From: an uncultured virus (IMG/VR IMGVR_UViG_2049941000_000903)
Lineage: Duplodnaviria > Heunggongvirae > Uroviricota > Caudoviricetes
DNA length: 40,775 bases
Virus record (IMG/VR): IMGVR_UViG_2049941000_000903
Reading direction: 5' to 3' (one strand)
Shown: in pieces, positions 10,021 to 40,775 of the stretch
How positions within the stretch are numbered: position 1 is the first letter of the stretch
Layout of the letters: every line of letters begins with the position of its first letter
Program-made: the position numbers and the translations under genes
The notes under the pieces: generated by a model
Databases searched by the model: none
What the model was told of the DNA's origin: nothing
What the model saw: only the letters and a program-made list of their open reading frames with translations

Positions 10021-10036
10021 ATCTTTCTATATTTGG

Positions 10037-10668: not shown

Positions 10669-10669
10669 A

Positions 10670-11758: not shown

Positions 11759-11787
11759 TTTCTTGGTACTACTTAACGGTTACACCC

Positions 11788-11820
11788 CAAATATAAAAAA
11801 CGGAAATCACTTTTCGCAAT
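11788..11820 (-). promoter_or_regulatory. Promoter of the lysis cassette
   Basis: The reverse strand reads TATATTTG (11795-11788), with TTG about 21 nt upstream. Confidence 0.6.
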
Positions 11821-11858
11821 CTCCGTTGTACTTTATTGTGAAAATATTGTAATTCGCC

Positions 11859-12038
11859 CTAACCCATCAACTCGTTTATGAGCCGTTTGAGTGTAGGGAA
11901 GGCCATCCAGCCGAGGACTCCGATGGCAACGATACCAACCCAAGCCTTCGCACCGATGGCGAGGAAAAGGGCGCAGATGAAACCTCCGATGCCGAGAAAG
12001 GTAAGGAGGAACTTGATGATTTTCTTTAATGTTTCCAT
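11859..12038 (-). CDS. Small two-TM membrane protein, holin or antiholin candidate (59 aa, METLKKIIKFLLTFLGIGG)
   Basis: Read manually, absent from the ORF track. Two hydrophobic helices and a basic N-terminus, between tail and lysis genes. Confidence 0.7.
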   Translation of the reverse strand: METLKKIIKFLLTFLGIGGFICALFLAIGAKAWVGIVAIGVLGWMAFPTLKRLINELMG

Positions 12039-12045
12039 ATCGCAA

Positions 12046-13644
12046 TTATGTTAGGTCAATGACTTCGTACTCTGTATGGGGGAACGTGGTGTTGCCCAAG
12101 CCTATCTCCGAGACGGACGTTGCCGAGAACCAATGCTCTCCCGATGCACCGCTTGAGAACGCGGGAATCTCATTGAGGGCAACTCCGATGCGAGGGTCGT
12201 CAATCGTCACTTCGTCAAGTATGGGTATCGTCCGTTCATACGACCCCGTGGGGATGTAGTGATAGACAAGACCTCCGATGACCACCTCGCCGGGGAACGT
12301 ACCACTCGTCATCACGAGACGAAGGATTACCTTGCCCGTGCGGAAGTCCACGGTTGGGGAGATAGCCGCCGTGTTCGTGGACGGTGCAACATACGCATCC
12401 TGCTCCACGCTGTCGCTTGCACTCTCGCCAAATTCGGTGATGGTAACGCCGATGTCCCTTGTGAGGATGGTACTCATATTAGGTTCGACCTCGACCGTGA
12501 AAGAACCCGTACCTGTGACAAAATCCGTGTCGGGGATACAGTTGCTTCCACTCACGGTGGCGGTGATGTCCGTCTCCAAGTGAGCGTCGGGCTCGCCCGA
12601 TGTGTAAGTGTCGTACTGCGTCCGCTTGGAAACGTAGTCCACCGAGAATATACCTCCGCTTGACGGTATCGTGCCACTCACGTCAAAGGCAACGGAAAGG
12701 TTGTAGGTGTAGTTGACATCTTCCACGCGGTTGTACTGCTGATAGACCGTCACCGAGTCGGATGCGCTTCCATTGTATGCCGTCAGTTCGGCACTACGAC
12801 CGTTCTGATAAGGCGTAACACCCTCGCTTGCGATGGTCAGGACTCCGTTGGCGAATGTCAGCCACGACGGGAGGGTTGGCGTAGCGATTTCATCCGTGAC
12901 ACCCCAAGGCTGACCGACCATAGTAGGGCCGATTTGGCCGCTTGCCGTGATGACCGCAGGGTCAACAACAACCGCCCCCGATGTGTAGGTGTGCGTGTAG
13001 GTCGTCCAATCGTTCCACGCCGTTGTGGAGTAGTTCGCCTCATCGTGACCACCGTAGAAATACAGCGTTGCCGTACCTCCGTATGCGGGACAGATGTGGT
13101 TGGGGAATGACTCGTAGATATTGAGGTCAACATAGCGGGTGTTCGGCACTTCATCGGGCGCGATGACGGGAGATTCCTCTATGCGAACCGTGGAAGATGT
13201 CGTGGTCTCGTAGTTGCGCTCCTGCTCCACCGCAGAGCCGACACGGAAAGACGGACTGTTGCGATAAGTGACATCCACGTTGGTGCTCTTTATCGCGGAG
13301 GTAGCCGTAGAGCCAAGATTGTATCCGTAGATGTTATGGGCGTTCAGCACCACGAAATCGGAGGTGTTGGTCAATGCGGGAGTGAGCATCGCGTCGGTTA
13401 TAGTGCCCGTGGCTACCCCATCGGTATAGACCACAACCGTACCCGTAACATAGACATAGTTGCCAGAGTAGGTGCTTTCAGCCGCCCCTGCGTCTATGAT
13501 GTTTCCGCTTGAGTAGTGGATTATAGCACCCGTTATCTCGTAGGTGACTGCGTGTGACGTGGGCCACACAAGGTTTTCACCGAGATAAATCGCGGTTACT
13601 TGCCTTGTGCCGACCTTCGCGTCTTGTATATCGTTGGGGTTCAT
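12046..13644 (-). CDS. Tail fibre / adhesin with Ig-like (BACON-like) repeats, 532 aa
   Basis: N-terminal VTAIYLGENLVWP motif, PSWLTF...RSAELT...VTVYQ pattern, Thr/Ser rich. Confidence 0.7.
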   Translation of the reverse strand: MNPNDIQDAKVGTRQVTAIYLGENLVWPTSHAVTYEITGAIIHYSSGNIIDAGAAESTYSGNYVYVTGTVVVYTDGVATGTITDAMLTPALTNTSDFVVLNAHNIYGYNLGSTATSAIKSTNVDVTYRNSPSFRVGSAVEQERNYETTTSSTVRIEESPVIAPDEVPNTRYVDLNIYESFPNHICPAYGGTATLYFYGGHDEANYSTTAWNDWTTYTHTYTSGAVVVDPAVITASGQIGPTMVGQPWGVTDEIATPTLPSWLTFANGVLTIASEGVTPYQNGRSAELTAYNGSASDSVTVYQQYNRVEDVNYTYNLSVAFDVSGTIPSSGGIFSVDYVSKRTQYDTYTSGEPDAHLETDITATVSGSNCIPDTDFVTGTGSFTVEVEPNMSTILTRDIGVTITEFGESASDSVEQDAYVAPSTNTAAISPTVDFRTGKVILRLVMTSGTFPGEVVIGGLVYHYIPTGSYERTIPILDEVTIDDPRIGVALNEIPAFSSGASGEHWFSATSVSEIGLGNTTFPHTEYEVIDLT

Positions 13645-13683
13645 TAGGATGTCGTGATTACATAGAACGTACTCGAATCAAGA
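13644..13683 (-). CDS. True C-terminal end of the large tail protein (LDSSTFYVITTS*)
   Basis: Frame read manually. Completes the TQA(K/R)YDxL...TFYVI motif and overlaps the next ATG via TAATG. Confidence 0.6.
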
Positions 13684-13693
13684 NNNNNNNNNN

Positions 13694-13801
13694 AACAGTA
13701 TCGTAGTTACGCTCTTGCTCAACCGCAGAGCCAACACGGAAAGACGGACTATTGCGATAAGTGACATCCACGTTGGTGCTCTTTATCGCGGAGGTAGCCG
13801 T
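13694..13801 (-). repeat. Allelic copy of 13208-13308 (internal piece of the 532-aa gene)
   Basis: About 100 nt near-identical with five synonymous differences, diverging at the final codons. Bounded by N spacers. Confidence 0.8.
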
Positions 13802-13811
13802 NNNNNNNNNN

Positions 13812-14244
13812 TAGCCGTATTGCTCAAGTTCGTCATACTTGGCTTGGGTACAATGGACAACGTGCTTTATCGCCCCAAGGTTGCTATAATACGATTCGGA
13901 GTTAAAGGTTATTACCGACTCCCCTTCTCGCAGGATGTCGCCCACCGTGGTGATAGCAGGGGCGGTGTTATATTGACCAGAACTTGATATATGGAGTAAA
14001 CCTCGCCCACTTACGGGGTTTGTGCTACCGATAATACTGCGATTTATTCGCGTGGTATCATTGTAAGTAATCTCAAAATCTCGGAGTGAGTATTGACACT
14101 CAACGTTGTTATATGTGTTTACTGTCTTGGTAAGACCATCCTGACCGATGGTGTACGGCCCTATCTCGCCCTTCGTGGCGAACATATTGCCCTCATAGTC
14201 CACTCGGAAAGGTGCTTCTTGCGGATAGAAATTGGTTGGGGGGT
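13812..14244 (-). CDS. Large tail protein, C-terminal fragment (probably allele 1)
   Basis: QEAPFRVDYEGNMFATKG...GESVITFN...HVVHCTQAKYDELEQ parallels the end of 14255..15510. Confidence 0.7.
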
Positions 14245-14254
14245 NNNNNNNNNN

Positions 14255-15510
14255 GTGCCCGCTTGCTCAAGGGCATCGTACCTTGCTTGGGTACAATGGA
14301 CAACGTGGAGTATAGCACCGAGGTTGGAAGCATCGGAATCATCGTTGAAAGTGATTACGGATTCACCGTTGCGTTGAATGTCTCCGTTACTAAGACCACC
14401 ACCCGTTACAGAGATGAGCGCGGGCGTAATTGATACCGTACCTGATTGGGTGGTAATACCGCTTCGGAATAGCGTTATTTCCTGCGGAGTGACATCAGCG
14501 TAACTCTGCGTTCCTGCTGCGGCGGTGTACAGCCGCATCTCGCCCATCTCATACTGACCTATTTGGGTAACATTTGTGCTTCCTTGGCGCACTATCCTTT
14601 CGCGGTACAATCCATCCTCGCCAATCTCATAAGGGCCGAGAAATCCCTTCGTGGCGAACATATTTCCCTCGTAGTCCACTCGGAACGGTGCTTCCTGCGG
14701 GACATTACTGCCAGCAAAGAAGTTCACTTGGTTAACCATACTCCCCGAACCCGAAGGCCACTCGGTCTTGCTACCGCCCTGCATACCGGCCACCACAACA
14801 CCGTTACTCGCACCGCTATTGCCGTACATATACACGCCGTTGCCACTCAAGACATCTATGTACGCGTTCTTGGCGAGAAGCACCTTGGTTGCGATGAACT
14901 CAAAGTTGTCTGCCCTTACCCAATAATCTCCCGCCTTGCCAGCACCCACATCGGTAATCGGGTCAACCAAAGTCGCACCCGTGCCGTCCTTACAGTAGAA
15001 GTACAAGGTTTCCTCGGTAATCGGGTCAACCATATAGACCACATCGTAGAACTCAAACTCGGAGTTCATCTCGTCCATACCTTGATAGCCGTCAACGCCA
15101 ATCCCACGGCCATCGGGCAAACCATCCTCACTCCACTCGTTCACACCGCGCATAATCTTACCCATAAGGCCGTTCTCGCCCGCCCATCTTGTAGGCTCAC
15201 TCCAATCCCCAGGGGGGATGTCGGTGTTCCATCCACCATTCACAACCACAGTCCTATTCCTTGATGATACGTTGGCAATGGTGACATACACAACATCAAA
15301 CCAACTCCCCGTACTGGTGGGAGGCTCAACGCTCCAACCATTGAGCGCGGTGGATGGCGTGAGTGTCCTGCTCACGAAGTCATAGGTCATATCGTCTGGT
15401 GAGAGAAGCGATGGGTCGCCACTTGTGCTTTTATACAAGTGTAAGGTAGCATAAGACACTCCGTCCTCGCCCGGATCGCCGTCGTCACCCTTCGGCCCTC
15501 TGCCTCCCTT
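14255..15510 (-). CDS. Large tail protein, alternative C-terminal region (allele 2)
   Basis: Starts with the same DNA as 16208-16257 (KGGRGPKGDDGDPGEDG), then continues as a divergent homologue. Confidence 0.75.
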
Positions 15511-15520
15511 NNNNNNNNNN

Positions 15521-18500
15521 CTGCCACGATGTCGGGGTCAGCACCTCCACTACCGCTATTGCCGTACATATACAAGGCATTGCCACTCGCAACATCTATG
15601 AAGGCATTGTCGGCAAGGAGAACCTTCGTGGCAACAAAGTCAAAGTTGGTAGCCTCCACCCACATTGCCCGTGCCGCAGCCGTATCAGTCCCAGGAGCAA
15701 CGGACATAGCAAGGGTGATAGTCCCCGTGTCGGGGTTGATGTATCGGTCGTTCTCGCAATAGTAATACTTGTCGTTGTATAGCACCACATCGTAGTAGAT
15801 GTGAGAGGTGTCGGTATCGCTCCTTCCTTGGTAGTTTATGGGGTTGGACTGAGTGCCAAGTCCGTAGCCGTCCTCGTTGAACTCGTTGACTCCGCGCATC
15901 ACCTTTCCGATGAGACCGTTGTCACCCGTGAGACGCACAGGCTCACTCCATTCGCCCGGATTCAAGTCGGTATTCCAACCGCCCGTGATGCTAACGGTGG
16001 ATGTCTGCGATGTCACATTCGCTGCGGTCATATAGATAGGGCCACTTCCGCTACTCGGCAAAACCGCCGCCCATCCGTTCAGAGTACCCTGTCCCACGGG
16101 AGTCAAGGTCTGACTCTCGAAATCGTACACGGTATCGGAGATTCGGTATGTCTTGATGTCTCCAACATTGAGCCTACGATAGAGCGTGATGGTAGCCTTC
16201 GACCAACCGTCCTCGCCCGGATCGCCGTCGTCACCCTTCGGCCCTCTGCCTCCCTTGAAGATGCGGATGGTATCTTCGTATGTTATTGGAGTCTGTTCAC
16301 CACCCTCACCGTCATCGTATGCCGCACCGTCGGTCACAACAACCTTGAAATCGGCATAGGTCTTACCTTCGGGGTAGTACAACTCGTTGTCTGCCGTTAC
16401 AAGGTATGCTTGGTCAACCTCATCCCGGAGTGCAACCCAAGTGATAACAACCGTCTCCTCGCCTTCCTCCTCTTCGGGAGGTTCGACGGTCTCCTCGCCG
16501 TAGTACCATTGGTAGGTAGGGCCGTTGATGCCACTCGTCACGGCTGTCAAGGTAATGACTTGTCCGTTGTACTCTCCGTTGTCATCCGCGATGAATAACT
16601 TAGAGTCTGCTTCGATTCGCACACCCACAATCACGGGGATGAAGATTGCTTCGGGGTCATCCTTGGCGGGGACGCGGCTCTCGTCAACGTCCTTGTCGCG
16701 GAGTCTCGCCTGTGTCTCGTTCAACTCACCCGTGATGACTTGCAACATCGTATCCACCTTCTCGTCACGAAGCGTCACGGAGTAGATGGGTATCACGTCC
16801 TCGTTCTCGGCTATCGTCACGGTGGAGATGAGAATCCAATTCACGTTCAGTTCCGTCCCGATGACGGTCTCCACGAGGTCTTGGTCGTAGATAGGCATAT
16901 ACAAGCCTTCCACGAGGGTTACGGAAGCCATAAAGACCTCCTTGGAGTCCACCTCTGGGACGTAGGCCATAACGGGCTTACAGAGCCTCGAAAGGGCATC
17001 TTGCGCGGCTTCCTGCAACCTTGACATCGCCGCCGTCACATACTTGTCGGGCATCTGCAAGTCAAGCAACACGAACCTATCGTCGGGTTGTATGAGATAG
17101 ACCGAGTTCGGGAAATACTGCATCAGCGTCGTATCGTCCTGCCGTTGGCAAGTCAACTCCCATACATTCGTGTCGGCATTGTAGTACGCCTCCTTCACCA
17201 CGAACTCCCGACCCGCACACATTCCCGTCCGCATACTCACCGTACACAAACCGTCCGTAAGTTGCGATGAACCCATAGCATTGAGGTCGAAGCCGATTTG
17301 CTTGAGGTACAACTTGAAGGTCGTGTCAAGCGTGTACTCCACCCTCGCGGTGATGGTGTTCTCTTCAGGGTTGTCCTCCTCCAAACTCGGCGCGGCAAGT
17401 TTGTACACGATGACTAATTGGGGTGACGTTGGGGAAAGTGCCAACTCGCAACGGATGAATATCTTGAGATAACCCACCGCGTTCGTGGTAAACTGTATGT
17501 CCTCGCATACGAAGTCGAACACATCCTGCATCCTCGTTGTCACCACCTTCGCCTCCTTCGCGGTCACAAGGTCAGGGCCGACATACACGTCAATGAACAC
17601 CTTGGGGATTTCCATAAGGTAGTCACCGAGGACACGCCCCGTGGAAGGGTCACACTTGATTTGACCCGCGAGTTTGTGCATCCGTATCACGAAGCGTCCG
17701 TTGCCACCACCGACACCGTTCATCGTCTTGTAGATAGTACCCGTGTCATAGATGGGAGACTCGTAGCCGATGGTGAGTGCCTCCTGCGACTCCAATGTCG
17801 CATAGGTGGTGTTAATCTCCGTCACGCCCAACGTCACGGTGTCATCCTTTAGTTTGATGCTGTCCTCCGTGTACATTCCGTTATCGGACGGATTCGCGGC
17901 ATCCAACACCTCATCAATGCGCTCGTAAGGGTCATAACCCGTGGAAGGAAAATCGTTGTCGGCAACTTGGTATATTGTCATCCCCTCCACGCTCGGATAT
18001 ATCTCGGCAAGGTCGCCCGTGCCGTCGAAGCGCATAACCTTGGGAATGAGTCCGTACTTGTTCACCGCCGAGGTGTTCTGCAAGTATGCCTTCCTCGCAT
18101 CCCTCTGTCCGCCCGTGTACCCCCACGATGTGAGGGGAAGCATCAAGTTCGGGATATAGACGCTCTCGTGGTCTTTGATGTACGGAGTGAGGTTGTTGTA
18201 GTACCTCGTTGGCAAGTTGCGGTCACTGCCGTAGGCGTATATCCTCGTCGCAATCTCGTTCTTCGTGGACACGGCACGGGTGATGACCTTGAGACCATTC
18301 CCTTGACCGTAGGAAAACTCAGGGGTGGTGTTACTCGCGTCTTGCAAGTTCGGCCTACCAAGCACGATGGTGTTCTTGCCGTTCTCCACCTTGTAAATCC
18401 ACGAGATGCCCTTCCAAAGCGCGTAGATTTGGTTGAGAGCGTCCATACAAGTTCCGTCACTCAAGGAGAAAGCCTTGACCTCCTCCATCAAGTCGGTTAT

Positions 18501-18959
18501 CTGCGAGTACGAGGTGGACATCGCACGGATTGTCCATTGGCCGGGCGCGTAGTCATCCATATTCGCCTGTATGCGGTGGATGATGCCGTACACATCCTCG
18601 TAGGTATCCACGTTCGGTATGGACGAGAAATGGATGCCGTTGTCGTACTCCGTGATGTCGCGGAAGAGGGCGAGTTCGAGGTCTTTCGTCGCGCAGAAGA
18701 ACTGGACGTTCTTGTACACGAAGGCATCCCCCGATTCGGTGCGACGTGCGCTCTTTACCACTTGCGGAATCGTGTACAACTTGTAGCGGAATCCCGTGCG
18801 CGTGTAGTCCACATAGTCGCCTATCTGCCACTCTATCGGCACGGGCGATGCTATCTCCGCGAACTCCAAATAGGAAGGCTTGCCGAAGATACCGTTGTAT
18901 TTCGGTGCGCCACTGTATCGGACGGTCAGACCGTCCCTTGACTTTATGTTGAACCTCAT
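15521..18959 (-). CDS. Large tail tip / host-specificity protein, truncated by gap
   Basis: More than 1140 aa following the Dit-like gene. FSYGQGNGL..I and TRIYAYGSDRNLP motifs of tail hub proteins; collagen-like linker. Confidence 0.8.
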
Positions 18960-18962
18960 AGA

Positions 18963-19619
18963 CTAATCCGTTGTGTCAATTACATTACCAAGGATTGCGA
19001 TGCCCGCTACGGGAGCCGCACCGATGTTCTCACGAGCCTGTTGCTGCTGAGAAGCGGTAAGGTCTTGGTCGGTGAACCTCACTACATCCGTCACAATCGG
19101 GTCGGCATCATCGGCGGTGATAACTCCGTTGTTCATCGTCATCCGCGTCACGGGGTCGTTCACCTTGAACTTGACCTTGAACATAACCGTGGCAGTACCA
19201 CCGCGCTCCTTGAAGGTGGCATCCTCGAAATCGCTACCCGCGTAACGGACTCTTTGGAATCCGATTTTCGTGTACTCGTCATAGATGCGGAAGTTGCCCT
19301 CGCGGACGGCGGTAAAGAAAGACCAAGCGGCAAGATGCAAGTCTGCGGCTGCGGTGGAGTCAACCCCATCCACGGCCTTCATATAGAACTCGACCTCCAT
19401 CTCGAAGCCCTTGTAGTGCATATAGGTGGTGTACTCATCCTCACCATCCTCGTCCTTCCAATCGTTCTTGTACGGGTCTTTCGGTGACGGAAGCAAGGGA
19501 TAGGGGTTGGTCTTTGCGACCATCCCCCACGCCTCCTTGGTATCCGTTGCCAATGCGTTCTCACCGTACTGAATGTAGAAGGGCTTGTAGTTCGCTATCG
19601 GTATGTTAACAATCGGCAT
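18963..19619 (-). CDS. Distal tail (Dit-like) protein
   Basis: Position after the tape measure. PKDPYKNDWKDEDGEDEY and FKVKFKVNDP motifs. Confidence 0.65.
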   Translation of the reverse strand: MPIVNIPIANYKPFYIQYGENALATDTKEAWGMVAKTNPYPLLPSPKDPYKNDWKDEDGEDEYTTYMHYKGFEMEVEFYMKAVDGVDSTAAADLHLAAWSFFTAVREGNFRIYDEYTKIGFQRVRYAGSDFEDATFKERGGTATVMFKVKFKVNDPVTRMTMNNGVITADDADPIVTDVVRFTDQDLTASQQQQARENIGAAPVAGIAILGNVIDTTD

Positions 19620-19634
19620 ATATCGTAAAGTTGA

Positions 19635-19778
19635 TTACATAAATACTCTAATCGCTGGCCCATCACTCATCGTCATCACACTGTCAATCCTTTCAAGGAG
19701 ATTTGCGGTGTTCTGCGCGGTGTTGTATGTGTTCGCCTGTATCTGTGTGAGATATTCGGCAAGGGTGGGTGCAGGAGT
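19635..19778 (-). CDS. Probable tape measure protein, C-terminal fragment
   Basis: YLTQIQANTYNTAQNT helix; located directly upstream of the Dit-like gene. Confidence 0.55.
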   Translation of the reverse strand, partial: TPAPTLAEYLTQIQANTYNTAQNTANLLERIDSVMTMSDGPAIRVFM

Positions 19779-19788
19779 NNNNNNNNNN

Positions 19789-20559
19789 TTGGATACTCTT
19801 TCCAAGATGACTAACAAGCCCTTTGATTTGATTCCTGATGCTACGATACAGGAGGCAATTGCACAGTGCAGTTACCAAGGCAGGCTCAAGTATGAGACTC
19901 AACTGGTGAAACTGAGTGCATATAAGGATTACTACAATACTCTCAGTGAAGGTAAGAAGATTGTCAGTTCTACGGACATGAACGATGCCGTCGCTATGGC
20001 TGGTGCTTTCCTTGAAAATCCTTACATCAAATCGCTGTGGACTTCAACATCTTCTGGAATAGAACATCTCTACCAGTTAAAGTTTGCTGCCAAGGCAAAG
20101 CTCACAGACGGTAGGGTTGTGTCTGTAAAATGCATGCCGGATAAGCTTGTCGTAGACCACAATGAAAAGACTATCCAGCCTATTGATGTGAAGACAAGTG
20201 CTATGCCTGCATACGATTTCGTGGAGAATTTCGTCAAGTTCAGGTATGATATACAGGCGTCGTTATATACCAATATCCTGAGGATTGTCCTCAACGCGCA
20301 TGATGAGTATAAGGATTATACTATCCTGCCTTATGTCTTCTGCGACATCAGTCGTACTGACATGCAGCCTGTGTCCTATGTCTACGACCCGTGCTCAGAG
20401 GACCAGATTGACGGCTTCTCGTTCAAGGAATACAAGTACAAGGGATGGAAGGAACTCCTTTCCGAGATTCTTGACTACGAAGCCGCCAAAGCTGTTGTTC
20501 CCAAGGGTATTCTCACTGATGAGGCTAATGACCTTATCTCAATACTAAACTCGAAGTAA
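19789..20559 (+). CDS. PD-(D/E)XK exonuclease, C-terminal part (continuation of 1885..2232)
   Basis: KCMPDKL, IDVKTS and YDIQASLY nuclease motifs. Overlaps 2141-2232. Confidence 0.85.
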   Translation: MDTLSKMTNKPFDLIPDATIQEAIAQCSYQGRLKYETQLVKLSAYKDYYNTLSEGKKIVSSTDMNDAVAMAGAFLENPYIKSLWTSTSSGIEHLYQLKFAAKAKLTDGRVVSVKCMPDKLVVDHNEKTIQPIDVKTSAMPAYDFVENFVKFRYDIQASLYTNILRIVLNAHDEYKDYTILPYVFCDISRTDMQPVSYVYDPCSEDQIDGFSFKEYKYKGWKELLSEILDYEAAKAVVPKGILTDEANDLISILNSK

Positions 20560-21935: not shown

Positions 21936-22334
21936 GGGCCTGGACCCGCACGTGTGCAGTCTTGCGTCCATGCAGTTCGGTTATCACGACTTTCAGACTG
22001 GTAAGAACACTCAGATAGTCGTTGACTGTGGCAGCATAGATCCGTTGCTGTACAGAAGAACGATAGAAGCATCGCATCTTATAGGTCATAACCTTAAGTT
22101 TGACCTGGAGTTCCTGTATAACTTCCACATAGCCCCGCTTCATGTGTACGATACCATGATATGCGAGCAGTTGCTGTATCTCGGATACAGGGCGGGAAAG
22201 GTTACATACAATCTTCATGATGTATTGTACAGATATACCGGAATCGAGCTTGACAAGTCGTTCCAGAAGGACATAGCCAGTAAAGGACTCACTCCCGAAG
22301 GAATACGCTATGCCGCAAACGACGTCGTGCATCT
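21936..22334 (+). CDS. polA: Family A DNA polymerase, 3'-5' exonuclease fragment
   Basis: GLDPH, GHNLKFD (ExoII), YDTMICEQLL and YAANDV (ExoIII). Confidence 0.85.
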
Positions 22335-23240: not shown

Positions 23241-23250
23241 NNNNNNNNNN

Positions 23251-26894: not shown

Positions 26895-27159
26895 AGGCAG
26901 GAAAGGTTACATATAATCTTCATGATGTCTTGTACAGATATACCGGCATCGAGCTTGACAAGTCGTTCCAGAAGGATATAGCCAGTAAGGGACTCACTCC
27001 CGAAGGAATACGCTATGCCGCAAACGACGTCGTGCATCTTCAAGATATACGGAGGTCACAGATGCTCATAGCAAAAGACAGGGACTGTTTGAATGCCTTT
27101 ACGGTTGAGAACAGATTCGTACCGGCTATAGCTTATCTTGAGTGGTGCGGTATCAAACT
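26895..27159 (+). CDS. polA: Family A DNA polymerase, middle fragment (overlaps about 22190-22334 as an allele)
   Basis: YAANDVVHL and ENRFVPAIAYLEWCGIK. Confidence 0.85.
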
Positions 27160-27169: not shown

Positions 27170-28424
27170 CGTTGACTGGAACAGTCCAAAACAGGTTGTA
27201 CCGGTTCTGCAGAAACTGGGTTTCGATACCAAGACAAAGGATAAGAAGACCAAGAAAGAGAAAGACTCCGCTCTTGAAAAACTTATCGCCACCCAGAAAG
27301 GAATAGCTGATGATTTCCTGGATATATACTTCAAGTATAAGGAGGCTTCAAAATGTGTGTCGTCTTACGGACAAGGTCATCTCAACCAGATTAATCCCAA
27401 TACCGGAAGATTGCACACGGTGTTCAGGCAATTCGGGACCGTAACTGGTAGGATGTCCTCAGGAGAGAGCAAGAGCTTCAACAGGGACCTTGCAAAACTC
27501 AAAGGACTTCCTGATAGCGACGTGTCTTACTGCAATCTCCAGAATCTTCCCAAGGATGCGGAGACCAGAGGGTGCTTTGTAGCGGAGGATAACAATGTCT
27601 TCGTATCCGTCGACTATGCTGCAGAGGAATCCCGTGTCCAAGCTGATGTGTGGAACGAGAAAACTTTGCTTGACTCATTCGCCAACGGCATAGATACCCA
27701 TAACCTCTATGCCAAACTTTGTTTTCCTGACGAACTCAAGGATGTTGATGTCCGTGATGTTAAGAAGCTCAGACCAGACCTGAGGCAGAAAGCAAAGTCT
27801 GCAGAATTTGCTGTCGGATACGGTTCTGACGGAACTTCTATCGCCACATCAATAGGCCTTCCTGTGGACAAGGCAAGGGCTATGGTAACTGGTATACTCA
27901 AAGGTATGCCAGGCATGGCAAAGTTCAAGAAACAGGCTGGAAAGTTCCTTAAGGAGCATGGATATATAGTCATTAACAAACAAACCGGGCATCGTATATA
28001 CTGGCCAGAATGGGCTTATTGGAAGGCCACTGAGGACAGGTTCGACAGGAAGTTCTGGGATGATTATAAGCTTTACCATAAAGGCACTGATGACGAAGTT
28101 GCCCAGATGGTCAGAAAGCACATCTCCATGGGGCACGACTGGTTCGAGAAGAACGTGCTGAACTATCCCATACAGGGGGGCAGTGCAATAGTAATGAAAC
28201 AGGCAGCGGCGGATCTGTTCGAATGGGTTGTCAAGAATAATCTGTTCGGCAGGGTTCTGTTCTGTGTGTTTGTACATGATGAGCTTGACTGCGAGTGCCC
28301 AAAAGAATTGGCTGAGTCTTTCTCCAAAGTTGTTCAAAACATAATGGAGAAAGCAGCGGCAAAGTATTACAAAAGGTTACCAATACCAGCAGACTGCGAA
28401 GTCAGTTCACACTGGGTACATTAA
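27170..28424 (+). CDS. polA: Family A DNA polymerase, polymerase domain (crAss-like)
   Basis: WNSPKQV, TGRMSS, NLQNLP, motif A DYAAEESR, motif B RQKAKSAEFAVGYG, NYPIQG, motif C VHDE. Confidence 0.95.
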
Positions 28425-28713: not shown

Positions 28714-29449
28714 CGGGAAGAACGGCAACAAGCAGTCGCAGTTCAACAAGTTCTACTACACGCCAAAGGAGGTAGCCGCCAAGATTGACCCGTGGATTGA
28801 CAACTACTTGTGGCTCTACAACAATGACTACAACGACAACTACGATGCCCTTGAAGCCGACATCCGCGAGATTGTCACCAAGGAGAACATAGACCAAATC
28901 TTCATTGACAACCTCACCATCTTGGATATAGACGAACTTGACCACGATATATGGAAGGCACAGAAGGCGTTTATGAAGCGCGTACACTATCTTGCTATCG
29001 AACTCAACATCCATATCCATTGTATATGCCACCCAAACAAGAGTGCGGGTTTCTTGCGTATGAACTCCATAAGCGGTAGCGGTCACTTGCCGGACATCGC
29101 GCAGAACACCTTTATCATCCATCGCATCAACCAAGACTTCGACAACTTGAGCAAGGAGTTCTTGGGCAAGGCAACGCGAGATGACATCCTCGCAAGCGGT
29201 TGTACCAATGTGGTGGAGATATGCAAGTGCCGTGACAAAGGGGCGGCTACCGACCACTTCATCAAACTCTGGTTCGAGCTTGAGTCCAACCGCCTAAAGA
29301 ACGATGTTGCGGAGCAGATTCACTACGGGTGGATGGAGCCTTCGGACATACCGCCAGAACCGCCGAGGGGTGAGTGGTCACGCGAGGAAATGGAGAAATG
29401 GGCAACACAACAATCTAACGAGGAGGATATGCCCGATGACATCTTCTGA
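28714..29449 (+). CDS. SF4 (DnaB / T7 gp4-like) replicative helicase, C-terminal part
   Basis: IFIDNL (Walker B), HIHCICHPNK, ISGSGHL..IAQN.FIIHR and ICKCR motifs. Confidence 0.85.
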
Positions 29450-29849
29450 CTTCATAGCACTTATGGCACAAGTCCGCGCCCTTTCGCCACAAGAGAAAGC
29501 GGCACTTCGTGAGGCTCTCGGCATACCCGTCACGCAACTCGTAGCGGACAAGAAACAAGAACACGCGGAGTGGTACATCGGCAAGATGAATGAGATTCTC
29601 GGACACGATGTGCGCTCCAACTCTCGCAACCAAGTCCTCGTCTATGCACGGTGCGTACTCGCCTATACACTACGGCGCGAGAAATACACTTGGCAGGAGA
29701 TAGGACGGTTGCTCGGTGGGAAGAACCACGCGACCATCATCAACAACTACAACCTGATGCAAGATGCGATGGCGTTCCCACGGCAGTACGCAGACCTTAT
29801 GCACATCTATAACAAGTTCAAGACGGCAATAGACAATGACGGAAAATGA
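29436..29849 (+). CDS. DnaA C-terminal-like HTH protein
   Basis: VYARCVLAY...TWQEIGRLLGGKNHATII resembles DnaA domain IV (IGxxFGGRDHxTV). Confidence 0.7.
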   Translation: MTSSDFIALMAQVRALSPQEKAALREALGIPVTQLVADKKQEHAEWYIGKMNEILGHDVRSNSRNQVLVYARCVLAYTLRREKYTWQEIGRLLGGKNHATIINNYNLMQDAMAFPRQYADLMHIYNKFKTAIDNDGK

Positions 29850-34810: not shown

Positions 34811-35184
34811 AATTCGGAGAACTTAAAAATCTGAACTACCCCGATTGTATGGAGGTGGAACAAGTGCTTGCTGATTTGTTTTACAATGGACAAGTGAGCT
34901 TTTTGAGTGCTGCGGTGGCATATTCCAATTCGCTTGAGAGAGACAGGCACGATAAGGAAAGTCTGTTCAATGAAGCCGCTTGTGTCATTACGATGGCATT
35001 GAGTGGTAATTGGAAAGGCAAGTACAAGGAGCAGCTCGTCAAACGGGCAATTCACATTCTTAATCTCAACAAGACATTTCCTTCAAATATCTACAATGAC
35101 CAGTACGGATATACCAGCGAAGATAAGAAGGAGTGGGACGAGTTTATGAAAATGCACTATGATTATCAAGAGAAGGAGAAATGA
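34807..35184 (+). CDS. Hypothetical protein, 125 aa
   Basis: ATGA overlaps at both ends. Confidence 0.75.
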   Translation: MKFGELKNLNYPDCMEVEQVLADLFYNGQVSFLSAAVAYSNSLERDRHDKESLFNEAACVITMALSGNWKGKYKEQLVKRAIHILNLNKTFPSNIYNDQYGYTSEDKKEWDEFMKMHYDYQEKEK

Positions 35185-35285
35185 TGTGGGAATACGTCGG
35201 CACACTGCTATTCGGAGTGATAGCGTTCTGGCTTGGATATAAGTTCGGAAGATTAAAGAAACAAAGAGATGATGAGGATAGATAA
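35181..35285 (+). CDS. Small membrane peptide MMWEYVGTLL, copy 2
   Basis: Near-identical to 2764..2865. Confidence 0.7.
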   Translation: MMWEYVGTLLFGVIAFWLGYKFGRLKKQRDDEDR

Positions 35286-35511
35286 AAGACTGTTAGAGCC
35301 TGAGTCATCACACGGATCTAAGCAACTAACAGAACGCGAGGAGTGGGAAAAGAACGGATGTAGTAATAATGAAGAATGGCACCGCTTCCTCAACAAACAG
35401 ATGTGGAGGGAATATACTTCTGACCTTAAGAACGGCTGCTATATAGGCACGCACGAATCAAATCTCAATGCTTGGAAGCAAAGAAGGAAAAGAGATATAG
35501 ATATTGATTAA
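35269..35511 (+). CDS. Hypothetical protein, 80 aa
   Basis: An allele begins at 40678. Confidence 0.7.
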   Translation: MMRIDKRLLEPESSHGSKQLTEREEWEKNGCSNNEEWHRFLNKQMWREYTSDLKNGCYIGTHESNLNAWKQRRKRDIDID

Positions 35512-35516: not shown

Positions 35517-35903
35517 ATGACCAAGGAACAGATTCTTATAGAGCTTAAAAAGTTGTCCCTGGAGGATAAGTTCTCCGTGCTGGCAACCCTGTCCCGTATT
35601 GCCGGGTTAGAGGAGAAAGATAACCAGTTGGACATACTTGTGAACCATCATATAGATTTAATGAAGCAACTGTCTGGGGACGACTTTCTAACCGGTAGAA
35701 CAAGAAAGAACAGTCAGGCAAGAATGGTTGTAGCAAGATGTCTCCAAGAAGCAGGACTTAACTTGTCACACGTTGGACGTATACTTGGATATGACCATTC
35801 CACCATTTCCCATTACAATAAATTGTGGGAAGATGCGCTGTCTTTACCAGTTGCTTACAAAGACGTACTTAAATTATACACAACTTATAAATCAATGCTA
35901 TGA
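35517..35903 (+). CDS. DnaA C-terminal-like HTH protein, paralogue of 29436..29849
   Basis: QARMVVARCL...LSHVGRILGYDHSTISHY. Confidence 0.7.
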   Translation: MTKEQILIELKKLSLEDKFSVLATLSRIAGLEEKDNQLDILVNHHIDLMKQLSGDDFLTGRTRKNSQARMVVARCLQEAGLNLSHVGRILGYDHSTISHYNKLWEDALSLPVAYKDVLKLYTTYKSML

Positions 35904-36625: not shown

Positions 36626-37384
36626 ATGGAATGGAAGATAATTGATGGATATCCATTATACAAAATTAATAATATCGGGCAAGTAAAGAGTATCTGGTTT
36701 AATAAAGAAAAAATTATTAAACCGATTATAGGTCACGGGTATTACTACGTAAATCTTCATAATAATAATGGGACTAAAAGATTCGCGGTTCATAGATTAG
36801 TAGCAAATGCCTTCATTAGTAACCCTTACAACAAATTATATGTAGATCACATTGACGGTAATAAAAGTAATAATGCCGCAACAAATTTAAGATGGGTTAC
36901 TGCAAAAGAAAATTCAAATAATCCAATTTCTCTTGATAGAATGAGAAAGAATCTTGTCGGGCACTATGCTGGTTTGGGAAGATATGGTAAAAAACATCCG
37001 CTTGCGAAGCCGGTGGACAGAATTGACATATATGGGAATATAAAATCATATGAATGTATAGAAGAAGCTGCAAGAGATGGGTTCGAGAAAAACAGCATAA
37101 GCAAATGTTGTCGAAAACTATTAAAATCTTATAAAGGGTACATATGGAGATTCGCAGGTGATGACGACAGGGATTTATCTATATTACATAAAGAACTTGC
37201 AAAGCGTGATTGGCCAGTATGGAGAAAAGATATAGATGGTACAATAACTTATTATGAACACGTATCAGATGCCATAAAGCAGTATGGGTTATCAAAAAAG
37301 CATATATATCAATGCTGTAAAAGCCCATATAAAAGGCATTATAATGGGTTTGTCCATTGGTCCTTTATTCCATTTAGTGCATAA
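36626..37384 (+). CDS. NUMOD4-HNH homing endonuclease with NUMOD1-like repeats
   Basis: EWKIIDGYPLYKINNIGQV, VHRLVANAF, VDHIDGNKSNN and ISKCCRK...YKGYIW. Markedly AT-rich. Confidence 0.92.
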   Translation: MEWKIIDGYPLYKINNIGQVKSIWFNKEKIIKPIIGHGYYYVNLHNNNGTKRFAVHRLVANAFISNPYNKLYVDHIDGNKSNNAATNLRWVTAKENSNNPISLDRMRKNLVGHYAGLGRYGKKHPLAKPVDRIDIYGNIKSYECIEEAARDGFEKNSISKCCRKLLKSYKGYIWRFAGDDDRDLSILHKELAKRDWPVWRKDIDGTITYYEHVSDAIKQYGLSKKHIYQCCKSPYKRHYNGFVHWSFIPFSA

Positions 37385-38769
37385 TTTATTACCATTCTGT
37401 TTGCACGATCCACCTTTGACTGGTCATACCTGATGTATATCATGGTAGTACGGTTATTCATGGAATGACCAAGAGCCTGTGATATAACATCTATAGGTAT
37501 CCCAATCTGGTAGGCGAAGGTGGCCCACGAATGTCTGGCGAAATATGTGGTTATCCCTGGAATGACAGGCTCTACCTCCTCACGTTCCTCCCCGAAGATT
37601 TCATCCTGCCTCTTGACAACTGGTCCAATCTTCTGGCAGGCTTCGTTGATGGCCCTTGCAAACGACTTGTGATGCTTGCAGTGATCCATTGCTTCGAGCA
37701 GGTAATCCTTGCCTCTATACTTGTCAAGCAGCGCTTGTGCTTCCGGCTCAATCCTGATGGAGTATTTCTTATGCGTCTTGTTCCTTATGTATTCTAACCT
37801 GCCATCAACTATCTGACCATGCTTGGCAAGAAGAAGGTCCTTAATATTGATTCCGATAAGGAGAAAGGNNNNNNNNNNGTCCATTGCTTCGAGCAGATGC
37901 GTCTCACCGGCATACTTGTCAAGAAGCACTTGAGCCTCCGGTTCAATCCTGATGGAGTATTTCTTATGTGTTTTGTTCCTTATATACTCTAACCTTCCAT
38001 CCACTATCTGACTATGCTTGGCAAGAAGAAGGTCCTTAATATTGATTCCGATAAGGAGAAAGGACAGGAGAAAGTAATCCCTGTACTTACCATTGATTAC
38101 GTCTGTGGGAAATTCCACGAAGGCACGGAAATCTTCCACACTTACGCTTCTTTTCCTCGTAGGCTCCGTCTTGAACTTGAAGCCATCGAAAGGATTAACA
38201 GATACTATGTGTGTCTTAAAAGAATAGTGGCAAATCGCCCTTACGCATCGAAAGTAGATTGCTCTTCCATTTGGACCTTGAGTTCTGGCAAGGAATTTCT
38301 CAAATCCGAAAAGCCATTTAAGATTTACACTCTCTATCTTAAGACTTTCCCCTCCGTAAGAAAGCATTTTCTTAAGCGCACACTTGTAAACCTCACGCGT
38401 TCCGTCCTTCATTGGCTTGGACATATACTCTTCAAAGATGTCATTAACCAGATGTCCTTTGTTAGTGTCTGGAGAGGACGACATGATTCTTACCTTTATC
38501 TCGGCAGCGGTCAGGGTCTCAAAATAGTTTTCAAGAGAGAGTAGCGCAATGCTCTTGTCTATCTTGCTCTTCTGTTCTATGAGTTTTATGTTGAGGGCGG
38601 AGTAGGTTGAGGATAGTTTTATCTTTCTTCCGTCCCAGTCATCCGGAGAAAGACGTATGCCGGTAGATATAGAGGCGCTGGTCCTGTTATGGATAATCAT
38701 AATAAGAACAGTCCCCTTACCGTCCTTAGCCTTGGAACGGAGGTCAAGATATAGTTTGGTGGTAGTCAT
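37339..38769 (-). CDS. int: Phage integrase (tyrosine recombinase with arm-binding domain); about 60 codons duplicated across the gap
   Basis: N-terminal YLDLR.KAKDGK...ISTGIRL...WD arm domain. GINIKDL, RNKT, YFARHSWAT, LGHS and TMIY catalytic motifs. Confidence 0.92.
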   Translation of the reverse strand: MTTTKLYLDLRSKAKDGKGTVLIMIIHNRTSASISTGIRLSPDDWDGRKIKLSSTYSALNIKLIEQKSKIDKSIALLSLENYFETLTAAEIKVRIMSSSPDTNKGHLVNDIFEEYMSKPMKDGTREVYKCALKKMLSYGGESLKIESVNLKWLFGFEKFLARTQGPNGRAIYFRCVRAICHYSFKTHIVSVNPFDGFKFKTEPTRKRSVSVEDFRAFVEFPTDVINGKYRDYFLLSFLLIGINIKDLLLAKHSQIVDGRLEYIRNKTHKKYSIRIEPEAQVLLDKYAGETHLLEAMDXXXXFLLIGINIKDLLLAKHGQIVDGRLEYIRNKTHKKYSIRIEPEAQALLDKYRGKDYLLEAMDHCKHHKSFARAINEACQKIGPVVKRQDEIFGEEREEVEPVIPGITTYFARHSWATFAYQIGIPIDVISQALGHSMNNRTTMIYIRYDQSKVDRANRMVINYALNGIKDQWTNPL

Positions 38770-38783
38770 AAGCTTGTTTCACG

Positions 38784-38817
38784 CAAATATAAAAATTCCT
38801 GCAAACAATCCTGCAAA
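38784..38817 (-). promoter_or_regulatory. Integrase promoter overlapping arm sites
   Basis: Reverse strand TATATTTG (38791-38784), 14 nt before the ATG. The TTTG -33 candidate lies inside the arm repeat at 38814-38817. Confidence 0.6.
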
Positions 38818-38863
38818 CACCAGAAGAATGTGCAGTACAGATTTTATAGTGCATAAAAAAGAA

Positions 38864-38898
38864 GAAACACCTCAATTACATTGTAACAGAGATGTTTC
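38864..38898 (-). terminator. Intrinsic terminator downstream of the tRNA fragment
   Basis: Minus strand GAAACATCTC...GAGGTGTTTC followed by TTCTTTTTT. Confidence 0.6.
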
Positions 38899-38927
38899 AT
38901 TCGCTGACTATCAGCTTGCTATATGTG

Positions 38928-38979
38928 TGCTCCCTTAGGGGCTCGAACCCTAGACACCCTGATTAAGAGTCAGGTGCTC
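38928..38979 (-). tRNA. 3' fragment of tRNA-Lys(CTT), attP core; not a complete tRNA gene
   Basis: GAGC A CCTGA CT CTT AA TCAGG GTGTC TAGGG TTCGAGC CCCTA AGGGAGC A. The 5' acceptor strand and D loop are absent. Confidence 0.88.
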
Positions 38980-39056
38980 ATGATTTATAATAACTTAATA
39001 ATCAAATAACTATAAAGGCAATACTAGTTGCCTGCAAACATTTCTGCAAATTTTGT

Positions 39057-39542
39057 ATGAATTATGATTTGAGAAATAAGGAAGACCGCAAGAGATTCCT
39101 AAGGTATGCCAATATGCTGATGAGACAGCAGAGGTCTAACGTGAAGGTTGTTGATGAGTCAAACAGGACTCTTAACCAGAACAGTTATGCCCATGTCCTC
39201 ATTAGGATTGTAGCGGCATATACAGGAGAAACGGAGTACTATGCCAAGCAGGTGTACTTCAAAGCTCTTGCAAATCCTGGTATCTTCTTCGTTGTAACAA
39301 AGGATTCTGCTACCGGCAAGATTATGAAGATGGTCAGGAGCACAGCCGATCTCAGTATAGATGAGATGAGAAAAGCCATTTCAAACTTTCACTGGTGGGT
39401 ACTTCAGACATTCGATGGACAACTGGTGCTCCCGGAAGCAACGATAGAAGACGACGGAACTGTAACATTCCGCTCCGAAGCAGAGAAGGAAGGTCTTGCA
39501 AAGGCTGATATAGAAGCGTCGAAGGCAGAAATATATATGTGA
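39057..39542 (+). CDS. NinB-like protein
   Basis: RTLNQNSYAHVL, RSTADLSIDEMRKAI and LVLPEA motifs. Confidence 0.65.
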   Translation: MNYDLRNKEDRKRFLRYANMLMRQQRSNVKVVDESNRTLNQNSYAHVLIRIVAAYTGETEYYAKQVYFKALANPGIFFVVTKDSATGKIMKMVRSTADLSIDEMRKAISNFHWWVLQTFDGQLVLPEATIEDDGTVTFRSEAEKEGLAKADIEASKAEIYM

Positions 39543-39543
39543 T

Positions 39544-39705
39544 ATGACACAGAGAGAAAAGAACAAAATAAAAAGAGACATCAGGAATCTCCTGGAAGAC
39601 TCTTACGAAGATGACTGCAATTCCTACGAACTTGAGTTCCGTGACATGCTCGAGAACATTTTGGACAAGTGGGAAGAGATAACATCAGTACATCAGAGGA
39701 AATAG
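39544..39705 (+). CDS. Small hypothetical protein (53 aa)
   Basis: Read manually; followed by a hairpin. Confidence 0.6.
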   Translation: MTQREKNKIKRDIRNLLEDSYEDDCNSYELEFRDMLENILDKWEEITSVHQRK

Positions 39706-39706
39706 A

Positions 39707-39740
39707 TAAGGGGTAACCATCACGGCTACCCCTTACTCTT
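39707..39740 (+). terminator. Putative terminator hairpin
   Basis: TAAGGGGTA...TACCCCTTA followed by CTCTT. Confidence 0.55.
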
Positions 39741-39802
39741 AACACATTAATCTTACACTTATGAATAAAGCTTCCTCCTCGCTACTAAGGTATGTATTAT
39801 TA

Positions 39803-39832
39803 TTGCATATTAAACATTAATAAGTATCTTTG
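39803..39832 (+). promoter_or_regulatory. Bacteroidetes promoter
   Basis: TTG at 39803 and TATCTTTG at 39825-39832. Confidence 0.6.
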
Positions 39833-39860
39833 TTAGTAACACATTATAAAAACACTGACT

Positions 39861-40046
39861 ATGGATAAGGATAAACGTTCTCTGACAATATTTGTTATAA
39901 TACTTGTTGCCCTTCTTATAATAAACCTCAACTACATCATTGAGTTCATTCAGGAAAGAGGCTGGGTTGCAGTACTTATACTCTTCGTAATTGTTCCAGT
40001 TCTGATTCTCATATTCAAATGGCTAAAGAGTGACAACATAATCTAG
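39861..40046 (+). CDS. Two-TM small membrane protein with its own promoter (moron-like)
   Basis: Two hydrophobic helices, AT-rich. Confidence 0.7.
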   Translation: MDKDKRSLTIFVIILVALLIINLNYIIEFIQERGWVAVLILFVIVPVLILIFKWLKSDNII

Positions 40047-40408
40047 CGATTGTTGTTCCTGTAGAAACTAATCAATGATGACGGGTCTTTGAACCTTTGT
40101 ACGTGCTTTGCCATTGATATTATAGGCAGGTTCCAGAAATACTTGTACGCCTTGCTGTGCCCTTTGTAGGGGCCACGTGTGACTTCTTCCATATAAGTAC
40201 CTGGCCACAACAACTTGAGTCCGTTAATGGCATCTCGTATTGGCTCAATAGCTGCGAATGGTGACTCGAGGATATTAAGACCTTCCTTTATCATAAGACC
40301 TGGCATTGTTACAGACTGTGAACCTAACTCATTTCGCAATCTATACAACTGGTACAGTGACATCTGTTCTGCCCAAGACAAGAGCTTATTCTTGTCCTTG
40401 TCGTCATC
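40043..40408 (-). CDS. C-terminus of a probable giant crAss-like ejection/cargo protein
   Basis: DDDKDK...WAEQMSLYQLYRLRNELG...EGLNILESPFAA...GPYKGHSKAYK...FY resembles, from memory, the C-terminus of Crassvirales large ejection proteins. The frame is open to the gap. Confidence 0.65.
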   Translation of the reverse strand, partial: DDDKDKNKLLSWAEQMSLYQLYRLRNELGSQSVTMPGLMIKEGLNILESPFAAIEPIRDAINGLKLLWPGTYMEEVTRGPYKGHSKAYKYFWNLPIISMAKHVQRFKDPSSLISFYRNNNR

Positions 40409-40418: not shown

Positions 40419-40593
40419 AAAATGTGGGTTCTATTTCACTTGCGTAAACCAAGCAGGAGTCGCACAATGCGTTGGACTACAATATTTCGATACGAATCTA
40501 ATGAAGTGGAGAGACTTTGATGAAGAGGTCAGGGAAGTATTTATTGACTACTGGATGGAGATACCAAAACTACCAAAGGAGGAGGAACAATGA
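40419..40593 (+). CDS. Hypothetical protein, C-terminal fragment ending KEEEQ
   Basis: DYWMEIPKLP ending and ATGA overlap. Confidence 0.6.
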
Positions 40594-40694
40594 TGTGGGA
40601 ATATGTAGGAACGTTGTTCGCGTGTGTGATAGCGTTCTGGCTTGGATTCAAGTTTGGAAGATTAAAGAAACAAAGAGATGATGAGAATAGATAA
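40590..40694 (+). CDS. Small membrane peptide MMWEYVGTL, copy 3
   Basis: Variant of the copies at 2764 and 35181. Confidence 0.7.
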   Translation: MMWEYVGTLFACVIAFWLGFKFGRLKKQRDDENR

Positions 40695-40775
40695 AAGACT
40701 GTTAGAGCCTGAACCATCACACGGGTCTAAGCAACTAACAGAACGCGAGGAGTGGGAAAAGAACGGATGTAGTAA
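40678..40775 (+). CDS. Allele of 35269..35511 (runs off the window)
   Basis: MMRIDKRLLEPEPSHGSKQLTEREEW. Confidence 0.7.
   Translation, partial: MMRIDKRLLEPEPSHGSKQLTEREEWEKNGCS

Follow-up and report, generated by a model that had tools for sequence, protein, structure and literature searches.

A probable junction of attP and integrase in a crAss-like phage of ruminant gut origin

We analysed a DNA stretch of 40,775 nucleotides (nt) from an uncultured virus of the Caudoviricetes (IMG/VR record IMGVR_UViG_2049941000_000903), hereafter called the window, and in particular its piece 37879-40408, in which an integrase gene lies beside a fragment of a tRNA gene. All positions are those of the window unless a related locus is named. 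A first-pass annotation, made from the letters and their open reading frames (ORFs), had described this piece as free of gaps and had read it as the intact phage attachment site (attP) of a candidate temperate crAss-like phage. The count of N runs agrees with the first statement, as none of the 20 runs in the window lies between 37879 and 40408. Read from left to right, the piece holds the N-terminal part of the integrase gene on the minus strand, a pair of short repeats, a hairpin, the 3' part of a tRNA-Lys gene, a second pair of repeats, three ORFs on the plus strand, and the end of a large crAss-type gene on the minus strand.

The tRNA fragment (about 38928-38980, minus strand) comprises the last 52-53 nt of a tRNA-Lys(CTT) gene, in line with the 52-nt core given earlier. 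It includes the 3' side of the D stem, the anticodon arm, the variable loop, the T arm and the 3' strand of the acceptor stem. Its anticodon loop was read directly as CTCTTAA, which gives the anticodon CTT. The Rfam tRNA model matched the core partially (positions 9-63, 20.3 bits with a gathering score of 29, E 0.11), and no Rfam match at gathering thresholds was obtained anywhere in the window. ARAGORN called no tRNA and no complete tRNA is present in the window; the absence of a call is expected because the core is a tRNA fragment. When the 2.5-kb piece was compared as DNA with phage records, only the tRNA core matched, in two unannotated contigs, and the exact 42-nt core gave no match in viral contigs.

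Arm-type repeats flank this core on both sides, as had been proposed. The P' pair, proximal to the integrase, consists of two copies of CCTGCAAA spaced 12 nt start to start (38798-38817, plus strand). The distal P pair consists of CCTGCAAA and TCTGCAAA, 12 nt apart and in the same orientation as the P' pair (39031-39050, plus strand). The two pairs form 20-nt direct repeats that are 90% alike. The motif YCTGCAAA occurs five times in the whole window, with 2.8 expected after shuffling, and four of the five occurrences lie at this site on one strand, as two pairs with 12-nt spacing. The P' pair stands at the same place in related loci, and the P pair is conserved in them and in a near-identical metagenome contig, L198. 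The window combines arm-type repeats to either side of the core with an integrase that has an arm-binding domain at its N-terminus. A hairpin (38864-38898) lies immediately 3' of the tRNA fragment; it is formed by a 17-nt inverted repeat with 82% complementary arms and 1 nt between them, and a run of T follows it on the minus strand. Comparable hairpins could be read after the core in three relatives (L002, L005 and L007). This hairpin probably serves as terminator of the tRNA gene once that gene is rebuilt. The assignment of the site as attP, the unintegrated form, is supported by the phage DNA on either side of the core and by the repetition of the arrangement in L198.

The arm-domain integrase is present on the gap-free piece as described, with 297 of about 405 codons (37879-38769, minus strand, start codon 38769-38767), and is then cut by a scaffold gap. 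This part matches Pfam Arm-DNA-bind_5 (35.4 bits) and Phage_int_SAM_5 (46.4 bits) and also holds the start of the catalytic domain. The C-terminal catalytic part is found on the neighbouring piece as a strain variant (37342-37866, minus strand). The two parts overlap by 62 codons (184 nt, 88% identity), and the C-terminal part is collinear with full-length homologues in the alignment, in which the RHxW, LGH and IY motifs are conserved. It is also matched by PHROG integrase families with an E value of 1e-15. An ORF of 476 aa that spans the gap was rejected as a read-through artefact because the flanking piece ends overlap. Among annotated phage integrases, those of Bacteroides phages BS-TP2 and F1/F2/F4 are nearest, with 32-33% identity. 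A search of solved structures returned only a weak XerC-like match (E 0.006), and in an NCBIfam search the Xer models scored far under their cut-offs. Between the end of the integrase gene and a small ORF that follows a resolvase gene, the window contains an HNH/NUMOD4 homing-endonuclease gene (36626-37381, plus strand). Its absence from the near-identical L198 suggests an insertion polymorphism.

To find relatives of this module, a profile was needed. With the single integrase fragment as query against viral contigs no close relatives were found; the fragment had 255 homologues, and nine of the 120 listed come from contigs that are 92-105 kb long. When 25 homologues were combined in a profile, the viral collection yielded 167 relatives, of which the best 80 were kept. 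Among these, the seven closest loci (L001-L007) have integrases 51-69% identical to the first sequence of the profile and lie on contigs of 94.6, 79.4, 98.6, 99.9, 94.3, 78.6 and 32.7 kb. The remaining 73 show at most 44% identity and lie on other phages. All seven loci have the order NinB-like gene, intergenic tRNA fragment, integrase. The C-terminus of the RNA-polymerase-subunit gene adjoins in four of them (L002-L005). Two, L001 and L007, have PolA inside the locus, and other replication genes of the window are found downstream of the integrase. A NinB-like homologue stands beside the attachment site not only in these seven viral loci but also in L082 and on contig C19 of genome G001, both described below. 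With L082 and L198 the module order recurs in nine other contigs, which come from other assemblies. L198 is a separate 3.4-kb metagenome contig that repeats the sequence of arm pair, Lys core, arm pair and integrase almost base for base. Its integrase is uninterrupted (405 aa) and identical to the N-terminal part from the window at 293 of 297 residues (99%) and to the C-terminal piece at 152 of 165.

The tRNA core differs among these loci. As read from the anticodons, it is Lys-CTT in the window and L198, Pro-TGG in L001, Ala-TGC in L002-L005, Val-TAC in L006, L007 and L081, and Arg-TCT in L082. The Val reading of L007 and L081 is confirmed by ARAGORN. Rfam reports a tRNA in L006, and in L002-L004 it detects no more than the T arm and acceptor. 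Paired TGC(A/G)G(A/G) repeats, 12 nt apart, flank the core on both sides in every relative. A constant architecture with exchanged cores has the look of working attachment sites. In L006 the tRNA-Val (9768-9830, minus strand) is nearly full length (Rfam 33.3 bits, positions 1-71) and, unlike the others, lies on the strand opposite to the integrase.

An integrase search with one genome per species, from which 80 loci were kept, yielded evidence for integration. Only two of these best 80 loci, L081 and L082, have integrases above 50% identity, and neither has a Lys core. L082 is an attP-type contig binned with a metagenome-assembled genome (MAG) of Firmicutes. L081 lies on a 108.6-kb contig (G001:C5) of a Bacteroidales MAG. 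The bacterial side of this contig carries PPDK, PhoH/PIN and Mur-ligase-type genes and a gene for an alpha-2-macroglobulin of 1780 aa. A complete tRNA-Val(TAC), an arm repeat pair and the integrase (52-58% identity) come next, and from there PolA (66%), TerL and further genes of crAss type extend as far as the end of the contig, 52 kb away. The neighbourhood of alpha-2-macroglobulin and tRNA-Val recurs in two related bacterial genomes. G001:C5 is a clear attL-type junction and good evidence of integration, for this tRNA-Val relative only. The 51-nt Val core has exactly two copies in the MAG. The second copy is a 3' fragment on contig C19, beside an arm-like repeat and a NinB-like gene and followed by a terminator hairpin, and is a candidate attR. 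Contig C19 also contains a 163-nt direct duplication (554-716 and 1649-1811, 95% identity). One copy forms the 3' end of the gene for a small membrane protein that comes after the NinB-like gene, and the other lies past the displaced tRNA-Val core.

We conclude that the piece 37879-40408 is the attP-integrase junction, in unintegrated form, of a crAss-like phage from a ruminant gut community, and put the probability of this reading at about 80%. The module order in complete crAss genomes and the attL-type junction in a relative together indicate that the lineage is very probably temperate and integrates into tRNA genes. The first-pass annotation had proposed integration into a Bacteroidales tRNA-Lys gene. 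Integration stands for the tRNA-Val relative in a Bacteroidales MAG; that this particular phage integrates, with the tRNA-Lys of a Bacteroidales host as its target, we infer, as we do the roles of the repeats and the hairpin and the upkeep of lysogeny. In the mechanism we propose, the integrase would be a tyrosine recombinase whose N-terminal arm-binding domain binds the tandem TGCAGR/CTGCAAA arm sites, two to either side of the core; it would also bind core sites inside the 52-53-nt copy of the tRNA-Lys(CTT) 3' end. The attP site would recombine with the tRNA-Lys(CTT) gene of the host, and the phage copy would rebuild the 3' end of the tRNA with the hairpin behind it. After insertion, the integrase gene should lie directly downstream of the tRNA, and the NinB-like and RNA-polymerase-subunit genes at the far end of the prophage.

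Several observations weigh against this interpretation. The integrase of the window is divided over two pieces that are different variants, and the Phage_integrase domain scores 26.0-26.8 bits (26.8 for the part in the window), with a Pfam cut-off of 27.1. No integrated copy of the Lys lineage, attL or attR, was found among the best 80 loci of the search with one genome per species, and one metagenome scan for this lineage gave only another attP form, L198. A Pfam scan (E <= 0.05) of 38 ORFs lying close to the integrase in L001, L004, L198 and the window detected no CI-, Cro- or Xis-type family; small divergent repressor or excisionase proteins can escape such a scan. In the tRNA-Val relative, the attR is unproven because the 787 nt beyond the core (C19:1-787) could not be assigned to bacterial DNA: they match nothing in 40 related genomes, and they hold the 163-nt, 95% duplicate of nearby phage sequence. 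The upstream flank of G001:C5 matches relatives at the tRNA only, except for two genomes whose contigs stop just after the tRNA; with this and a C19 flank that has no counterpart, the empty attB could not be rebuilt. The intactness of that prophage is likewise unproven, because portal and TerL lie on different contigs in an order unlike that of the complete relatives. Finally, depth was taken from Logan contigs of four runs of one bovine gut sample that is possibly the source of the window, and these contigs break within the core at 38942-38955, none of them bridging it with 31 nt on each side.

Part of this evidence would also fit a module that is a relic or serves another use, such as circularisation, multimer resolution or a plasmid-like state, in a phage that forms no integrated lysogens. 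The lack of a repressor or excisionase among the scanned ORFs, the lack of an integrated Lys-type copy and the catalytic-domain score slightly under its cut-off all point that way, and for crAss-like phages persistence without integration is reported (PMC6235969 and PMC10983915, in their available text). Against it, the integrase ORFs are intact, with 400-412 aa, in L198, L001, L004 and L081. The cores have been swapped among five tRNA species with arms and gene order retained, a pattern that is difficult to account for unless integration is selected for. One relative has a junction of bacterial flank, full tRNA and integrase. We regard a relic or another use as improbable, although it is the strongest of the alternatives.

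The crAss affiliation of the carrier was examined through the genes around the site. Next to the P pair lies the gene of a NinB/Orf-like recombination mediator (39057-39542, plus strand, 161 aa), which matches PHROG 72 with an E value of 3.9e-12 and Pfam NinB with 18.9 bits, under the cut-off. It is followed by an ORF of 53 aa (39544-39705, plus strand), with a 57% identical homologue at the same place in L004, and by a small hydrophobic ORF of 61 aa taken from the ORF listing (39861-40046, plus strand); neither of these two has a family match. The minus-strand ORF end at 40043-40408 is convergent with these three ORFs, as had been noted. It consists of 121 codons (40046-40408) and a stop codon (40043-40045) and runs off the piece. 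A tblastn search of the 121 residues against phages gave 42 records with 32-39% identity. Among the best 25 of the 42, 22 are named crAss-like phages in which the feature is annotated as a putative RNA-polymerase subunit, so the comparison that the earlier annotation had called for favours Crassvirales; the remaining three comprise Dulem virus 41, bajarodcaudo virus 1 and a 5-kb contig without annotation. The residues align to 1241-1344 of the 1345-aa protein QOR59700.1 of cr128_1 (39% over 107 residues, E 9e-17), which in this member of the Steigviridae (Mahlunavirus rarus) comes after a 2432-aa RNA polymerase. The ORF end had been ascribed to a giant crAss-type ejection protein. The crAss-type C-terminus is borne out by these alignments, and the 1345-aa protein is one which we take to be ejected from the virion. 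A PolA fragment on another piece (27171-28421) has Kolpuevirus 'frurule' as its best match (46.5%), identities of 33-47% to named crAss-like phages, and such phages as 24 of its best 25 matches.

These low identities (32-47%) leave some room for a carrier outside the Crassvirales, a mosaic with a few borrowed crAss-like genes. By tblastn, TerL, portal and two capsid pieces of cr128_1 had no match in the window, which is partial and fragmented, and only one of ten structural and RNA-polymerase queries from cr128_1 matched, through its last ~105 residues. The window holds the last 121 codons of one giant virion RNA-polymerase-type gene. With no terminase, portal or capsid in the window, its membership of the crAss-like phages rests on the RNA-polymerase-subunit end, on PolA and on the relatives. 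It is the relatives that speak most directly against a mosaic. TerL (46-53%) and portal (54-55%) of cr128_1 were found in all five searched records that bear the module, and four of these are viral genomes of 94.3-99.9 kb that are 96-100% complete, three of them with terminal repeats. Together with the PolA matches, this makes a mosaic carrier quite unlikely. By best hits, the phage appears to be nearest to the Steigviridae. The first-pass annotation had also assigned crAss-like PolA, AAA ATPase and PD-(D/E)XK contigs to the same genome. Synteny in the relatives, rather than the scaffold, supports an origin of the PolA, exonuclease and ATPase-like genes from one genome kind.

The scaffold itself calls for caution. 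The window consists of 21 pieces separated by 20 N runs, 19 of 10 N and one of 573 N. Two of the 20 gaps have overlapping piece ends, 23241-23250 (251 nt, 95% identity) and 37869-37878, the gap within the integrase (184 nt, 88%). The ends of several pieces match the starts of non-adjacent pieces (2141-2232 with 19790-19881, 22191-22334 with 26896-27039, and 35170-35366 with 40579-40775), and variant duplicates of the same region occur at 72-100% identity. NinB-like, Holliday-junction resolvase, DnaA_C-like helix-turn-helix (HTH) and HNH endonuclease genes are each present twice. In our reading, the window is a tangled scaffold in which two or more co-occurring variants of one phage kind are mixed and the pieces are out of genomic order. 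Since the pieces are disordered and the variants mixed, linkage between pieces cannot be derived from the scaffold itself.

Two other features of these pieces were recorded. A second tyrosine recombinase of 346 aa (4695-5732, plus strand) overlaps the end of an HNH/NUMOD endonuclease gene (4162-4728). Its identity to Porphyromonas phage integrases is 27-29%, and the complete relative G002 has nothing equivalent. The recombinase was rejected as a second copy of the attP-linked integrase, as there is no significant similarity between them. Two adjoining ORFs at 9134-10020 (minus strand) have BACON domains, the Bacteroidales-associated carbohydrate-binding domain, and this block maps to the tail/structural region of G002.

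In such a scaffold, the integrase/attP end of an ordinary Bacteroidales prophage or mobilisable element might have been joined to a crAss-like fragment during assembly. Besides the small number of gaps with overlapping ends (two of 20) and the matches between non-adjacent pieces, two points favour such a chimera: the last piece (40419-40775) does not carry on the RNA-polymerase-subunit gene from 40408, and other Bacteroidales prophages have integrases of the same family at 33-41% identity. The junction under study lies within one piece, and Logan contigs showed no joints or breaks in 37879-40408 away from the core. The same order is found in L001-L007, L082 and L198, which come from other assemblies and include four genomes of complete size with crAss TerL and portal. 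The recurrence in nine other contigs and the near-copy in L198 exclude a chimeric join, a possibility that had been raised as a check on the first annotation and to which we assign very little weight.

At the core, the Logan contigs neither confirm nor contradict the join in the window. In the four runs of the bovine gut sample, the summed depth was 1,457-19,729 in the core bin and 6-55 in the flanks, so that the core bin is at least 100-fold deeper. At 38926-38943 and 38974-38979, many contigs pass out of the core into different sequence. The very deep core and the contigs exiting at both borders show that the core is shared with abundant tRNA genes of the community. Depth on the two sides of the core was alike in each run (13/7, 37/39, 53/52-54 and 8/15). 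Runs X5-X16 gave shares of 0.05-0.13 only, and no habitat claim is drawn from them. The least probable alternative is that the piece represents an attL or attR, the border of an integrated prophage, as the bulk metagenome source, where prophages are common, and the very high depth of the core might suggest. The sequence itself contradicts this: no complete tRNA is present, the 5' side of the fragment is phage DNA (arm pair, NinB-like gene and RNA-polymerase-subunit end), the 3' side is the integrase, and free viral genomes with terminal repeats keep the two flanks together as one unit.

Beyond the attP-integrase junction itself, a wider reading may be considered, to which we give slightly better than even odds. 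A Steigviridae-like crAss clade of animal and human guts would be truly temperate, would have retargeted one cassette to five or more different tRNA genes (Lys, Pro, Ala, Val, Arg), and would keep lysogeny by a regulator of an unrecognised kind. The cassette, made up of the NinB-like gene, arm sites, tRNA core and IntDOT-type integrase, would lie where the replication and RNA-polymerase modules meet, and the regulator may perhaps be a DnaA_C-like HTH protein. A small protein with a DnaA C-terminal-like HTH is encoded near the integrase in all relatives looked at and is the only recurring candidate for a DNA-binding regulator. Its gene copies are at 35517-35900 and 29304-29846 in the window (both plus strand), 2216-2599 in L198, 11585-12028 in L004 and 11778-12239 in L001. 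Two further observations were made in L004. A group I intron-like match lies at 19716-19983 (minus strand; 40.8 bits with a gathering score of 50, E 5e-07), and the region around 5000-8800 has only short ORFs under table 11 though tblastn finds the RNA-polymerase-subunit C-terminus there. Stop-codon recoding or introns are possible in this region.

The earlier statement that Crassvirales are regarded as non-integrating is fair as a general description but too flat, because integrases in some of them are already in print. An integrase has been noted in some crAss-like phages (PMC7039812, available portion), and a review refers to some crAss-like genomes with an integrase or predicted lysogeny modules (PMC7511551, available portion). 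According to the accessible text of a 2026 mouse-gut catalogue, annotations of integrase, excisionase and repressor are enriched in Intestiviridae and Zeta, and Steigviridae, to which the lineage of the window is nearest, rarely have integrase modules (PMC13503771). In pig gut, 12 crAss-like genomes were listed among predicted prophages (PMC12454387, in the part available). The word 'integrase' is absent from the main text of Yutin 2021, and the available part of the PhiCrAss002 paper mentions host integrases only. The accessible sections of PMC12823448 and PMC12629997 contained no statement on crAss integration. In the literature on crAss-like integrases, prophages and lysogeny, as far as its text was available, no description of an attP, a tRNA target or an att junction was found. 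The carrier is thus unusual but not unheard of, as integrase-bearing crAss-like genomes and a few predicted prophages have been published. The mechanism is a textbook one, and the gain lies in anatomical detail and comparative support, not in a new principle.

The years-long persistence of crAss-like phages in gut communities has yet to be explained. To our knowledge, cultured crAss-like phages are without integrases. The module described here makes classical integrative lysogeny a concrete and testable option for part of the Crassvirales, and it names the junction sequences to be sought in reads. The integrase/attP pairs are possible integration tools in Bacteroidales. If the clade is truly temperate, Crassvirales would gain in it their first case of integrative lysogeny open to genetic work, and Bacteroidales a set of natural tools for site-specific integration.

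Among known phages, the carrier resembles Steigviridae such as cr128_1, Kolpuevirus 'frurule', PhiCrAss001 and IAS virus in its RNA-polymerase-subunit C-terminus (32-39%) and PolA (33-47%), in the TerL and portal that its complete relatives share with cr128_1 at the identities given above, and in its replication genes for a PD-(D/E)XK exonuclease, a Holliday-junction resolvase and an aspartyl protease. It differs from PhiCrAss001, which was reported to be without integrase or lysogeny module (PMC6235969, available text). It also differs from cr128_1, in which another giant gene abuts the end of the gene for the 1345-aa subunit and neither an integrase nor a tRNA fragment nor a NinB-like gene intervenes.

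IntDOT of CTnDOT and IntN1/IntN2 of NBU1/NBU2 are Arm-DNA-bind_5 integrases of Bacteroidota that target tRNA 3' ends. The integrase of the window is like them in its three-domain Pfam architecture and in a module placed on a tRNA 3' end with arm-type sites, a likeness by domains only. In contrast to CTnDOT and NBU, its carrier is a crAss-type phage of about 100 kb rather than a mobilisable or conjugative element. In classical tRNA-integrating temperate phages, attP contains the 3' part of a tRNA gene, with the integrase adjoining. The present module agrees with theirs in that the core is a tRNA 3' segment, arms lie on both sides, and the adjacent integrase is transcribed away from the core; the tRNA is predicted to be restored on integration here as well. 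It departs from these phages in its crAss-like genome type and in that no excisionase or CI-type repressor was identified in the 38 ORFs. Carjivirus communis, the prototype of the crAssphages, is described in the available text of PMC10983915 as a phage-plasmid that is extrachromosomal and without integration genes. Like Carjivirus communis, the phage of the window is a crAss-like phage for which non-lytic persistence is predicted; unlike it, this phage has an integrase/attP module and an integrated relative.

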